A stretch of 64,000 bases of DNA from Microgenomates group bacterium (GTDB lineage: Bacteria > Patescibacteriota > Microgenomatia > UBA10105 > UBA927), in assembly GCA_049287205.1 (NCBI GenBank), contig JBAQFJ010000001.1, positions 43,156 to 107,155 on the forward strand, in the 5' to 3' direction. The notes beneath the pieces are model-generated. The model was given only the letters and a program-made list of their open reading frames with translations. It did no database searches and was not told where the DNA came from. Made by a program: the position numbers and the translations under genes. Position 1 is the stretch's first letter, and the number at the start of each line of letters is the position of its first letter. This document shows positions 8,136 through 15,461 of this stretch, one piece after another.

Positions 8136-11100
8136 TTAATTAACAATCCACCAGTTAAACTGTACATCTGTGGCAATTGCGTTATCGACATTGATAGTAA
8201 ATCCGATCCCCGGTATTTTGTCTGCAACATATAATACCTGATTGTTTGTGGATGAAAGCGGCGTGACATAGATGAGTGATCGTTCGGTGACTGCCGTTGT
8301 TGCAACACTGGTGATTTTCGTGCCCGCAATGAGCACAGCTTCACCAATAGTGGCGCTTGTTGTAGCAGATTGCGTGGAAGTTACATCATTCATGCCGGTA
8401 ATATTGAGTTTGGCAACGGTTGCGGAACCTGAAGCAGTCAGATTTCCTTCAGCATCAATTTCCACTTTTTTGTCGCCAATACCTTTGACAATGAGTTTAC
8501 CGAAGGCGCTTGATGAGCCTGTTTTCTCTAACGAAACGGTCAAATTATCGGTGAGCGGTCTGATTGTAGAAACACCTAAGATTCCGGTCACTGCCAAATT
8601 GCCGTTGACGATGACATTACCATCTGTGGTGATAATGAGTGTCCCCGCCATGATGTCGACATTGGCAAGTTTCATATTATTAATTGAAAGGGTGTCGGCC
8701 ATGCTATTGATGCCAGCGTCATTGATTTGGATGGATGCATCAACAAGGAGTGAGCCTGCAACGGACGTGTCACCAAGGGTGACGCTGCCAAGGACAGAAA
8801 GCGCATTGTGTAGTGTCATTGCATCTGCAACGATGGTATGTCCTGATAAATCGATGTCCGGCTCTGTAAATGGCGCGACATTTGCGCTCAGCGTTGCAAG
8901 GAGTGCGGATGTTGACGCATCGAGTGTTGTATCTACAGTAGCTGATTCCGATGCGATGAGATTTGTTACATTGGTAATATACGTGGCAGATTGTGTCGCG
9001 AAGAGTTGACCTTCTGGAGTGATGATACGATCTGCATATAACGTGTTTGTTGTTACTTCATCACTTTGTATGTTGTCTGCTGACAATGTTCCAGAGAACG
9101 TGGCATTTCCCAGATTGTCAAATGATGTTTTTGGTGTGCCGGTTTCGTCTGTTATGGTGAGTTTTTGTGTATCGTTTAATGTTACAGCAATCCCTTCAGG
9201 TGAGAGTGGGGTAATCGTATCTACCTGTAACCAACCGGTTTTTAAGTTTGCAATTGCAGCTTGCGAGAATTTTCCGACATCATAGATGAATGTGTTTGCA
9301 GCATCCTTCAAATCAAAGAGCAATCCTGTTTCCGGTGTTGTTGTTTGTGTAATAGCAAGGTTTCCAATGACATTAGCATCTGGATTAATGATTGGGTTTG
9401 CAGATGGATCAATACCGGATAGCCCTGTGATATTGAATCCTTCCACATCGCTGATACGCGTATTAAGCCATGTGTCTGCATCAAATCTTGGAGCTGTAAA
9501 CCGATAGGAAACGCGGGATGGTTGAGACGTATAAATGGCGAGACGATAATTTTCTGTATCCAGGTCGTACCACGCTTTTGTATTACCGGACGGATTTAAT
9601 ATGACAACCAGTTGATCGATATTCTCTTTCAGATCTGTTGTTTTACTGAATAGCCAGAGATCGGATCCTGTCGTTAAGTTGCCGAAATCAATAATAGAGC
9701 GATAGCCGACACCTGGAACATTTTCTGCTGTGTTTACAACCCCTGTTGCTTCCTCTTTCACGCCGATCATGGAAGCCATATATGTGGCGTATCGTGTTCC
9801 ACCGATGGTGTACGGAGGATCAACAGTGCCTGCATTGAGTTTTCCTGTGCCGCCGATCGTGACTTCCGTATTGCCTGTTAATGTAAGATTTCCTGATCCG
9901 GCATCGATCGTAAGTCCTGCTGAGCCATAAATGGTTTGTGTGCCAATTATATGGATTGCATAGGTAGGTGCGGTGGTGCCGATGCCAATTTGCGTAGCAG
10001 TTGAAATATCACCTGCGGCAACGAGAGAAAGGGATCCGTCACCCGGATCAAAATAATAATTGGCGTTATCATTATCTTTGTAGATTTTTGCTGATACATT
10101 ACCATTCACTGTGAGTGCTTCTGTTATAGATGCGCCGGTGTAGCCGATGCCGACGTTGCCATTACCAAGAATGGTCATGAGGTTAGCTGCATTGTTTGTA
10201 ATTTGGAGAACTTCATCCGCAGCACCAACAGTTTGATTTGTTTTGAGTGTGATTGCTTCTGCGGTTGTTGCGCCTGTATTGACACCTGAAACAAGAGAAA
10301 TTGCATTGCCGGCACCATTTGGTGTCGTCATAGAGAGTAAACCAGCTGAATCAACGCCAAGCGTGCTGTATTCAGCAGTGGAATAGGAAATGCGGAGTTG
10401 CGGCGCTGTTGTATCTACGATATCCAGTGTCGCATTTGGCGCGGTTGTCCCAATTCCTACATGATCACCTATATTTGTTGGTGTGATATTTGTACTGTTT
10501 CTTTGCCAATATCCAAGTATTCCTGTTCCTGTTGGATCTGCCCACGTTAATGTTCCCGCTCCATCATTTCGAAGAAGAGAATTTGCTGCTCCTTGAGCGG
10601 ATGGGAAAGAAGTGATGACATTATTTAATAAGACGATATTTCCGCTTGCATCAACTTGGAATTGTGATGATGCTCCGACAGACAATGGCGAAACAGGAGC
10701 TGTCGTACCAATGCCGACATTTGATGTAACAACAAGATCTCCAAGTGGACTCAGGGTAAGATCTTCTCCTGCACCTACCGTTGTGACTGTTGGATTGGTT
10801 GTGTTAAAACCTAAGGTTAAATTGCCGCCGGAAATTGTTCCGGTATCTCCATTTAAATGAATAAGCGCACTTGCTGTAGCCGTCGTACTTGGGTTATCTG
10901 CTGGAGCAAATGTTGTACTGCCAAGAGCAATACTTCTATTGACGACAGGGTAGGGGTATATAAGATCGTTTGTTTGAGTAAATAATGGTAAACCATCAGG
11001 ACCCAAACTTCCTGTTGCTCCTATGGGTCCGGTGGCGCCCGTTGCACCTGTTGCGCCTGTGGGTCCTGCAGTTCCTGTAGCACCTGTAGCTCCTGTTGCG

Positions 11101-14100: not shown

Positions 14101-15461
14101 GTTGCTCCTGTTGGTCCATTGTCTCCCGTCGCACCTGTTGCACCCGTAGAACCAGTTGCACCTGTTGGACCTGCAACCCCCGTTGCGCCAGTTGGACCGT
14201 CAACACCCGTCGCACCTGTAGAACCTGTCGCTCCTGTTGGGCCTTGTGTACCTGAAGCCCCCGTCGCTCCGGTTGGGCCAATGATTCCTGTCGCTCCCGT
14301 TGGGCCGTCAACACCGGTTGCACCTGTTGCTCCTGTTGCGCCTGTTGCGCCCGTTGCGCCAGTTGGACCGTCAACACCGGTTGCACCTGTAGAACCTGTC
14401 GCTCCTGTTGGACCTTGTGTACCTGAAGCCCCTGTCGCTCCTGTTGGACCAGATGCTCCACCTATTCCTGTTGCTCCTGTTGCACCTGTTGATCCGGTTG
14501 GTCCTGCAACTCCGGTTGGACCGGTCGCTCCTTCAGTACCGGTAGCTCCCGTAGTACCTGTTGCTCCTGTTGGGCCTAAATCACCAGTATTTCCTGTTGC
14601 ACCAGTTGCACCAGTTGGGCCTGCAACACCGGTTGCTCCAACAATACCTGTTGCCCCTGTCGCTCCTGTTGGTCCTGTCTGACCGACATTTCCAACGCTT
14701 CCTTGTGGACCTGATTGTCCAGCGATACCACTTGGACCTGTCGCGCCTGTTGTTCCAATTGATCCGCTTGCTCCAACTGGACCGGTAGATCCACTTGGAC
14801 CAGTGGGTCCTTGTCTTCCAGATGTACCTGTCGCGCCTGTTGGTCCCACAACACCTGTTGCACCTGTTGGACCAGTATCACCACTTGCACCAAGTACAGT
14901 TCCGAGTGTTGAACTGGTTTGATTGGGAAGAGAAGATGTTGTGTTTGTGGAATTGCTCGTAGGCAATGTTGTTGTTATTTTTTGTGTTTCGCTTGCGCGG
15001 ATATTACTTTGTATTTGTGAAAAGACAAAACCTGCACTTAAGAGTAACGCGAGGACTCCAAGAATAATCCCTGCTGGGAGCGCCCATTTATTTGCTGTAG
15101 CTTTTGCCGCAGCTTGTATTGGAGCAGAAGCCGGGGGAATAATAAACGTTTCCGGACCTGTTGATCCAATGATCGCGTCCGTTGCGGTAATTGGTACGGG
15201 AATAAGAGGTGCGGGAATCGCATCTGTAGGTGCGGATAATAATTCAACCTCCGGCAGATAATGCACGTCTGAAAGCAAATGTGTTTCTTTTGCAGGTAAA
15301 AGATTGCTCGCCATGTATCCGTTCTCTTTTGCCCAGGAAACGAAATGCTCAATTGTTCGGATTTTTGCATCGATACTTGTTTGTTTCTCCCCAGACTTGA
15401 AAAACATTCTTGCGAATGTTTGGATAATTGAGGCTGTGATAGTCGGGAGCAATGATTTCAT
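8136..15461 (-). CDS. giant membrane-anchored collagen-like (Gly-X-Thr) repeat protein with C-terminal fibre-like domain
   Basis: 2441 aa. It has a ~130-aa N-terminal region, one TM helix ([21 protein letters not shown]) and a Ser/Thr-rich linker. About 1,300 residues of uninterrupted GXY triplets follow ([15 protein letters not shown] units). The ~900-aa C-terminal domain carries three VGIGTTAP motifs. Confidence 0.85.
11000..14900. repeat. coding tandem nucleotide repeats (about 45-nt units) of the collagen-like region
   Basis: Highly periodic ggaccNgttgcNccNgt... sequence. Both antisense frames are open, which yields the artefactual PVAPVAP / Cys-rich ORFs in the track. Confidence 0.8.

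Follow-up and report, generated by a model that had tools for sequence, protein, structure and literature searches.

A predicted membrane-anchored, collagen-like giant protein with phage-fibre-type distal domains in a Microgenomates bacterium

The giant gene and its collagen tract

We analysed a stretch of 64,000 nucleotides (hereafter the window) on contig JBAQFJ010000001.1 of a Microgenomates group bacterium, which holds the gene for a giant collagen-like protein. The gene is an ATG-started open reading frame (ORF) at 8136-15461 that codes for 2,441 residues. It lies on the minus strand, and translation of the same positions on the plus strand is full of stops. An earlier note on this DNA had described the ORF, a single transmembrane (TM) helix, a Ser/Thr linker, a Gly-X-Y tract of about 1,300 residues and a C-terminal region of about 900 residues, all of which proved accurate on re-analysis; it left the strand unstated, however, and overlooked the cytoplasmic modules, SAM-like or helix-turn-helix (HTH), that appear to be functionally linked to the protein. 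The features of the gene and its product are listed below; relatives are designated by L or P numbers.

8136..15461, minus: complete coding sequence of the giant fibre protein, 2,441 residues plus stop; orthologous frame kept in L001 and L003
15282..15461, minus: cytoplasmic N-terminal helical module, residues 1-60, possibly a degenerate half SAM-like domain; conserved in L001, L003 and L006
15096..15281, minus: Pro-rich cytoplasmic linker, residues 61-122, recognised from the sequence and like the linker that joins the DNA-binding domains to the TM helix in fused homologues
15006..15095, minus: single TM helix, N-in, residues 123-152; Kyte-Doolittle maximum of 2.36, with Lys residues preceding the helix
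14892..15005, minus: Ser/Thr/Asn-rich extracellular linker, residues 153-190, recognised from the sequence
10986..14891, minus: collagen-like tract, residues 191-1492, mostly GPT(GAT)n G-V/T-x units; PF01391 match
10806..10985, minus: post-collagen junction with a conserved motif, residues 1493-1552; candidate segment for trimer registration or nucleation
9879..10805, minus: GIGTTAP-motif region, residues 1553-1861; predicted intertwined trimeric β-helix modules with capping loops
10695-10718, 10437-10460 and 9966-9989, minus: the GIGTTAP motifs
9438..9845, minus: family-defining "DPPY" β-sandwich domain, residues 1873-2008, for which there is no Pfam model
8355..9437, minus: C-terminal extension, mixed β/α and family-conserved, residues 2009-2369; no Pfam match
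8142..8354, minus: K1-lyase_C-type β-sandwich, residues 2370-2440; Pfam PF24146

We place the N terminus in the cytoplasm and the collagen outside because fused homologues have SAM-like or MerR/HTH folds N-terminal of the equivalent TM helix. Residues 1-60 of the giant protein gave a weak match to the second half of a SAM-like domain (Pfam Phage_int_SAM_5, E 0.012), and the equivalent N termini of L032 and L052 matched a SAM-like hidden Markov model (HMM) at about 1e-6.

The Gly-X-Y triplets form a single uninterrupted run of 434 (residues 191-1492; 1,302 residues). Thr occupies the Y position in 331 of them, and the X position is held by Ala in 225, Pro in 87 and Val in 52. When cut at GPT, the tract falls into 82 units, 35 of which are 15-mers and 21 18-mers, and the commonest units close on A, E, N or D or end in GTA. 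A slice of 300 residues matched Pfam Collagen (PF01391) with an E value of 2.8e-47 and 158.7 bits. Pro accounts for only 6.8% of the tract and charged residues for about 2% (16 Asp, 13 Glu, one Lys and one Arg). Bacterial collagens contain more G-A-T and G-P-T triplets than expected (PMC11923368).

At the DNA level, pairwise identity of the 45-nt units was 0.92, 0.93 and 0.39 at codon positions 1, 2 and 3, and all four Gly codons are used in the tract. Retention of the first two positions, together with a nearly random third, indicates purifying selection on Gly-X-Y and not a recent amplification or a mis-assembly. The longest exact repeat in the tract is 53 nt, no non-overlapping windows of 150 nt are more than 85% identical, and Tandem Repeats Finder returned matches of only 61-72%. 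The DNA repeats are therefore old and diverged, which makes the region assemblable. We conclude that the Gly-X-Y periodicity is far beyond chance and is maintained by selection, and that, its exact count aside, the tract is unlikely to be an assembly artefact.

The count of 434 itself could be wrong, through expansion, collapse or chimera formation during assembly, in which case the real gene would differ in length or be interrupted. Short-read relatives break or have N-gaps exactly in the tract (as in L001), many homologue gene calls begin within the collagen, and the orthologue in L003 carries just 130 triplets. The shortness of the exact repeats (53 nt at most) and the lack of 150-nt windows more than 85% identical speak against such an error, however, as do the one open frame with 434 in-register Gly codons, the conserved in-frame N- and C-terminal domains on both sides, the source record, which is a contig of 1.02 Mb, and the still longer tracts found on finished chromosomes of relatives. 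A wrong count thus seems to us quite unlikely.

The earlier note had considered the protein far longer than characterised bacterial collagens. In its own family it is not exceptional, as tracts of 844 and of at least 890 triplets occur in relatives, and bacterial collagens in databases reach 6,000 residues (PMC11923368). Loss of the frame in related genomes, which the same note had named as a refutation, is not seen: both L001 and L003 keep it.

Distal modules and the protein family

The 949 residues that follow the collagen abound in Thr, Ala, Gly, Leu, Ile and Asn. Neither this whole region nor the 190 N-terminal residues gave a match in Pfam and PHROGs scans, and a PDB sequence search with the whole C terminus gave nothing significant. 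The last 70 residues, however, are a full-length match to Pfam K1-lyase_C (PF24146; E 1.5e-7, 32.2 bits against a cut-off of 27), and the domain was modelled with a predicted local distance difference test (pLDDT) score of about 90. This match (32 bits, above the cut-off) surfaced only when the last 150 residues (8139-8588) were scanned alone, not with 8136-10985, a case which shows that long low-complexity queries can mask short terminal domains. Foldseek comparison of the full 949-residue model with the PDB gave weak local matches to the K64-1 depolymerase and the Pam1 tailspike (25-26% identity, E 7e-3 to 6e-2); these probably fall on the K1-lyase_C domain, the output giving no aligned part of the query.

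Three GIGTTAP motifs, with their first Gly at residues 1583, 1669 and 1826, and a degenerate VGIGYTGA at residue 1771 mark the region next to the collagen. Three VGIGTTAP motifs had been noted before; there are indeed three copies of GIGTTAP, but only two read VGIGTTAP, the other being IGIGTTAP. In a phmmer search of the PDB with this region, the sole similar protein was the Bd3182 mosaic adhesive trimer (MAT) fibre (8OJN; E 0.007), and both Bd3182 capping loops, RVGVGTTAPTSALHV and FGINTAAPAYNIHV, align to the GIGTTAP motif. In the Bd3182 crystal, the capping loops close an intertwined trimeric β-helix, as in T5 pb1 and the K1F endosialidase, and MAT fibres are found on the surface of the predator Bdellovibrio, where they bind prey glycans (PMC10769870). 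The GIGTTAP region of the giant protein has a low pLDDT in the monomer model.

The stretch from residue 1873 to 2008, which we call DPPY, has 20 invariant columns, including D-P-x-Y, KEE, DxWLF and APRxD. Its predicted fold is a β-sandwich with two short helices and a core pLDDT above 90. No sequence match to it was found in Pfam, PHROGs or the PDB, a profile search of the PDB included. Its best structural matches in BFVD were phage tail, tail-fibre and receptor-binding proteins (E 4e-5 to 1e-3), among them a siphovirus (Siphoviridae) "collagen triple helix repeat protein". To judge from the predicted structure, the resemblance to phage proteins is one of fold and not of family membership. The likeness of the tip to phage tail fibres, as drawn in the earlier note, is thus borne out by the K1-lyase_C domain, the DPPY fold and the Bd3182 loops; the parallel likeness to BclA is not, since no C1q-like domain was detected in Pfam scans. 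Nor was an intracellular enzyme fold, which the same note had named as an argument against a fibre, found in the C-terminal region.

A search with the C-terminal 949 residues returned 339 matches. Nearly all of those with a name belong to the Patescibacteria, chiefly to Gottesman-, Roizman-, Collier-, Levy- and Woesebacteria, and one partial match (P0044) is labelled Proteobacteria. A custom DPPY HMM, for which the giant protein itself was the seed of the family set, scored that protein at E 8e-74 and found 1,218 cluster representatives among 1.84 billion (1,119 of them at E <=1e-10), in proteins of up to 5,657 residues. It also found 250 loci in GTDB species genomes, of which the credibly named ones are Patescibacteria, but no relative in IMG/VR. 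Titles such as "Gammaproteobacteria", "Pseudomonadales", "Thermoplasmatales" and "Methanosarcinales" on L002, L005, L006, L011, L013-L016, L023, L059 and others probably belong to mislabelled third-party annotation (TPA) bins. The giant protein belongs to a large uncharacterised family, whose members bear database names such as "hypothetical", "collagen-like protein" or "triple helix repeat-containing collagen". In the literature on collagen together with Candidate Phyla Radiation (CPR) bacteria, Patescibacteria or Gottesmanbacteria, we found no description of collagen-like or DPPY-type fibres.

The TM-collagen architecture recurs in the relatives L001 and L003. L001 is 70% identical over the C-terminal 949 residues and has the same N terminus, TM helix and collagen tract, with an N scaffold gap within the collagen, and L003 (Candidatus Gottesmanbacteria) codes for a complete orthologue of 1,761 residues. 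A relative of 4,076 residues with 844 triplets is encoded on the complete Gottesmanbacteria chromosome OY969569.1. A collagen stalk was found in five of the 59 family representatives of at least 1,800 residues; such stalks are probably under-sampled by short-read assemblies. The junction motif, which ends in (I/L)ALG, also follows the collagen in L003, L007, L008, L024, L030, L077, P0037 and P0060. In some relatives (P0037) an S74 chaperone domain stands in for DPPY at the same position; S74 is carried by the homologues P0037, P0033 and P0057, and by no part of the giant protein. Mean identity across the family was 57% for DPPY, 42% for the terminal domain, 45% for the junction and 27% for the GIGTTAP region, the most variable of these.

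Two or more DPPY fibre genes with different stalks occur on the same genome or contig in L046/L077, L004/L009, L054/L075, L029/L055 and L052/L062. On the Gottesmanbacteria contig JAHFKN010000009.1 (L046/L077), the two genes have 189 and at least 890 triplets, the latter uninterrupted. The presence of several fibre genes with different stalks in one genome points to a repertoire of paralogues. In six homologues (P0027, P0040, P0028, P0038, P0042 and P0048), an intein C-terminal splicing region (PF14890) lies just upstream of the first GIGT motif, which suggests that inteins have inserted in some fibre genes.

A candidate surface fibre

The combination of these modules suggests that the giant protein probably forms a type-II (N-in) membrane-anchored homotrimeric surface fibre, with a collagen stalk and an end like that of a phage tail fibre. 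In such a fibre, the cytoplasmic helical module and the Pro-rich linker would lead to the one TM helix. Three chains would register at the conserved post-collagen junction and the C-terminal domains, and from there the triple helix would zip up towards the membrane; collagen folding has been described as proceeding from C to N (PMC11923368). At 0.286 nm per residue, 434 triplets would give a stalk of about 370 nm, to which the distal β part may add perhaps 30-40 nm (scaled from 14 nm per 370 residues in Bd2133; PMC10769870). Distally, β-helix modules with GIGTTAP caps would be followed by the DPPY β-sandwich, the 360-residue extension and the K1-lyase_C-type β-sandwich. The whole fibre would exceed the dimension of the cell, as CPR cells measure <500 nm; they have no outer membrane, and unidentified "pili-like appendages" extend from them to host cells (PMC7906910). 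The fibre would cross the wall and the S-layer and make contact with a second surface, for which a host cell, a partner cell or a glycan is the most plausible candidate. At its cytoplasmic end it would act with the translationally coupled SAM-like protein, which is part of the same polypeptide in relatives. That the organism might be an episymbiont, as had been guessed, agrees with its closest relatives being Candidatus Gottesmanbacteria and other Microgenomates/Patescibacteria.

Several points weigh against this fibre. The length of the collagen varies strongly between orthologues, from the 130 triplets of L003 to the 434 assembled here, so that repeat number is either evolutionarily labile or under-assembled in short-read bins. 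The AlphaFold2 (AF2) monomer of the C-terminal region is of low confidence outside two domains, although a poorly modelled monomer is what an obligate trimeric fibre would be expected to give. Within the family, conservation is highest in the C-terminal domains and lowest in the stalk, which is the opposite of what a host-specific receptor-binding tip would show; the conserved DPPY and terminal domains may therefore contribute to assembly or recognise a ligand that many hosts share, and not confer host specificity. Moreover, a chain so poor in Pro and in charge may, if unmodified, form no stable triple helix. A (GPT)10 peptide becomes triple-helical only when its Thr residues are glycosylated and is otherwise a random coil (PMC11923368), and the stability of the stalk thus probably depends on O-glycosylation of Thr. 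The earlier note had pointed to two glycosyltransferase blocks nearby, and both are present, at 1032-3863 (GT2, acyltransferase_3 and GT2) and at 57831-59258 (GT4). The GT2/acyltransferase genes lie 4-7 kb from the giant gene, and the GT4 block is 42 kb away. The sugar-modification genes are syntenic in L001; the tie of the nearby glycosyltransferases to the fibre is putative.

Among known systems, the giant protein resembles a hybrid of a Thr-rich collagen filament of the BclA/Pasteuria type and a trimeric fibre of the MAT/phage type. The MAT fibres of Bdellovibrio, such as Bd3182 and Bd2133, are cell-encoded, trimeric surface fibres like those of phage tails, with several paralogues per genome (PMC10769870). 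Their capping-loop motif is present in the giant protein at the level of sequence only, GIGTTAP being one residue longer than the MAT consensus V-G-G/N-π-x-x-P-x-x-x-L. S74 and non-S74 modules are exchanged in MAT proteins and in the giant-fibre family alike, and the terminal β-sandwich tip, the MAT alternative to S74, has its counterpart in the DPPY and K1-lyase_C domains. In contrast, MAT proteins are about 1,000 residues long, have a signal peptide and a conserved β-rich N-terminal domain of about 130 residues, both absent here, and lack a TM anchor, collagen and a cytoplasmic DNA-binding module. What sets the giant fibre apart from them is its N-terminal membrane anchor, its collagen stalk of 1,302 residues and the Patescibacteria-specific DPPY domain. 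With phage fibres and tailspikes (T5 pb1, K1F endosialidase, K1 lyase and the cyanophage Pam1 protein) it has the K1-lyase_C, β-sandwich and β-helix folds in common, but it is chromosomal, syntenic and cell-anchored, has no virion-attachment domain and no phage neighbours.

As to the collagen, the exosporium glycoproteins BclA and ExsJ and the collagen-like fibres of Pasteuria have GPT-type triplets with Thr at Y and polymorphic repeat numbers, as found here (PMC11923368, PMC6238073, PMC10987987). These proteins are surface filaments with a C-terminal globular trimerising domain, for which a role in attachment has been proposed or demonstrated, and the Thr residues of BclA are O-glycosylated. 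BclA, however, has a C1q/TNF-like tip and an N-terminal exosporium-targeting motif, whereas the giant fibre gave no C1q match in Pfam scans, begins with a cytoplasmic module and a TM helix, and comes from a non-sporulating CPR bacterium. BclA has 17-91 triplets, and the streptococcal proteins Scl1 and Scl2 about 50-80. Scl1 and Scl2 also present a globular domain on a membrane- or wall-anchored triple helix, but in the opposite orientation, with the LPXTG anchor C-terminal and the variable globular domain N-terminal, and Pro and charged residues, not Thr, stabilise their helix (PMC11923368).

The likeness to BclA raises the question of whether the giant protein could instead be a structural, hair-like nap or spacer, as on Bacillus spores, that is, a glycosylated brush for protection, hydration or spacing and no specific adhesin. 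Besides the Thr-rich GPT/GAT collagen, which is like BclA-type repeats (PMC11923368), the conservation of the C-terminal domains across many Microgenomates, unlike what is expected for host-specific recognition, and the presence of two collagen genes within 64 kb are consistent with a nap. Yet the distal modules are those of the receptor-binding fibres of phages and predators, and the paralogues with different stalks in one genome (L046/L077, L004/L009, L054/L075) look like a repertoire of binding fibres. We also know of no nap that approaches a stalk of 370 nm in length. A nap or spacer is thus possible but unlikely, and fits the receptor-binding-type modules and the paralogue repertoires less well than does a membrane-anchored fibre that contacts another surface.

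The component modules of the giant protein are already known, and its length has precedent; what is new is that they are joined to an N-terminal membrane anchor and to DNA-binding-type modules in the cytoplasm, and that the family has a conserved domain specific to Patescibacteria. CPR/Patescibacteria make up a large share of bacterial diversity. To our knowledge, all cultivated members live attached to other microbes, and we know only of type IV pili as structures so far implicated in finding or holding the host. The locus points to a second, widespread class of surface organelle in these bacteria, with about 1,200 protein clusters, that would be rooted in the membrane and like phage fibres, and in which some members may have collagen stalks longer than the cell. 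Such fibres are candidates for the thin "pili-like" appendages of CPR cells seen in cryo-electron microscopy and, if the assignment is true, would explain some of them. Thr-rich and Pro-poor tracts of 434-890 triplets would, moreover, be extreme natural test cases for how a collagen free of hydroxyproline is stabilised. The giant fibre may thus be relevant to CPR cell biology as well as to the biophysics of collagen, on the functions proposed here.

The cytoplasmic end and the neighbouring genes

Two genes flank the giant gene closely.

15468..16007, minus: upstream SAM-like partner ORF, 179 residues; Pfam PF02899, E 1.7e-11
7710..8120, minus: downstream GNAT acetyltransferase, 136 residues, 15 nt past the giant gene; syntenic in L001, with an uncertain link to the fibre

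The upstream ORF consists only of the N-terminal SAM-like (core-binding) domain of tyrosine recombinases (PF02899/PF13495). Pfam and PHROGs scans did not find the catalytic domain (PF00589, with its RHRY active site) in its 179 residues, and because this domain is missing the ORF is not an integrase. In NCBI an identical protein (P0239, 100%) is named "site-specific integrase", likely a mis-annotation, and one that could pass as a marker of a prophage. An independent short-read assembly (L082, a Logan SRR28062503 contig of 3,730 nt) contains a SAM-like product 100% identical to that of the window; it stops 72 nt past the SAM-like gene, within the 5' end of the giant gene and ahead of the collagen tract. 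Look-ups of the exact sequences of the giant protein and of LeuRS (leucyl-tRNA synthetase) returned no record.

The name of the upstream ORF, together with the phage-like distal domains, would fit a prophage- or phage-derived tail fibre beside an integrase, as part of a mobile element. The genes around it, however, are housekeeping genes in conserved synteny, tRNA and Rfam scans of the 64-kb window found nothing, and the N-terminal TM anchor is no virion attachment domain. A mobile element of this kind is highly improbable, and we rejected a prophage origin on the grounds of synteny, the TM anchor, the missing integrase catalytic domain and the lack of an IMG/VR relative of the DPPY profile. 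In the window, the neighbours are LeuRS, pilins, GNAT, ComEA/ComEC, ArgG/ArgH and arginyl-tRNA synthetase (ArgRS), and in L001 the order LeuRS, SAM-like, fibre, GNAT, three pilins and a tetratricopeptide repeat (TPR) protein is syntenic with it.

The SAM-like ORF is in frame with the giant ORF, from which it is 6 nt apart, with one stop and two codons between them (15462-15470). This stop/start arrangement is shared by L001 (8221-8229), L003 (275-283) and L006 (632-640), and the stop codon at the junction is TAG, TGA, TAG and TAA across the four genomes. We rejected programmed read-through of the stop, as the four genomes use these different codons. Being conserved in position, the stop is no sequencing error either. 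The junction looks like a genuine, selected stop with termination-reinitiation coupling that has split an ancestrally fused gene. A scan for promoters and terminators performed no better than on shuffled sequences and was uninformative on an operon.

In distant relatives, one or two SAM-like domains are fused ahead of the Pro-rich linker and the TM helix, and in others tandem MerR/HTH_17 domains take the place of the SAM-like ones before the TM helix. Altogether, SAM-like or MerR/HTH_17 domains precede the TM helix in 40 of the 59 family members of at least 1,800 residues, and Pfam confirmed N-terminal SAM-like or MerR/HTH domains in P0037, P0041 and P0060. This regular pairing argues for a functional link of the fibre to DNA-binding-type modules, and suggests an unusual connection between a surface fibre and DNA. 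The topology of the fused relatives is that of the ToxR and CadC regulators, in which a cytoplasmic DNA-binding domain and a single TM segment are joined to a large extracytoplasmic domain, and the eukaryotic protein MyRF has, besides its DNA-binding domain, a trimerising S74 module that derives from phage fibres (PMC10769870). The DNA-binding folds differ, being SAM-like or MerR in the giant-fibre family and winged helix or Ndt80 in ToxR, CadC and MyRF, as does the extracellular part, a fibre in the giant protein and a sensor domain in ToxR-type proteins. In the window, moreover, the DNA-binding-type domain is a separate protein.

A second collagen gene in the window, at 41631-45869 (plus strand), codes for 1,412 residues with a TM helix at residues 21-48 and 229 Gly-X-Y triplets, with Thr at 143 Y positions. 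Its C terminus is unrelated to that of the giant fibre and has no Pfam match. The start of this gene overlaps by 1 nt the stop of a gene for a 631-residue HTH_17, multi-TM and dCache_1 protein (39736-41631, plus strand), and here, too, a DNA-binding-type domain is paired with a collagen surface protein.

Possibly, then, the fibre is the "antenna" of a ToxR-like, membrane-tethered DNA-binding system, in which contact or tension would alter the cytoplasmic SAM-like/HTH modules and thereby either shift gene expression or hold DNA, whether chromosomal or incoming, at the base of the fibre. The SAM-like or tandem MerR/HTH_17 domains lie directly before the TM helix in the 40 members counted above, and the occupation of one architectural slot by two unrelated DNA-binding folds suggests that DNA binding was the property selected for. 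Also consistent with an antenna are the SAM-like ORF kept in frame 6 nt upstream in the clade of the window, the second collagen gene, likewise preceded by an HTH_17-TM-dCache protein, and the ComEA and ComEC competence genes that adjoin the locus. On the other hand, the SAM-like domain is a separate polypeptide here and the giant protein keeps a marginal remnant only (E 0.012), and SAM-like bundles could equally be modules for oligomerisation or docking, their DNA binding being putative. We give the antenna a minor share of the probability; it extends, and does not exclude, the membrane-anchored surface fibre. Along the same lines, and just as tentatively, the fibre and the SAM-like protein might together be a contact-sensing or DNA-handling device of ultra-small episymbionts, which, on touching a host or partner cell, would act through the single TM helix on trimerised DNA-binding modules in the cytoplasm and would switch expression on attachment in a manner like Notch or ToxR, or anchor DNA at the site of contact.

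Directly past the second collagen gene, three successive large ORFs (594, 1,084 and 1,121 residues; 45764-54121, plus strand) have no Pfam matches. An N-terminal hydrophobic segment was detected in the first two (45764-47548 and 47545-50799) and none in the third. ComEC appears to be split into a "Competence" ORF (19992-20837) and a metallo-β-lactamase ORF (21135-22043), both on the plus strand and adjoining ComEA (19351-19962). The same split of ComEC is found in the syntenic relative L001 (1587-3579).

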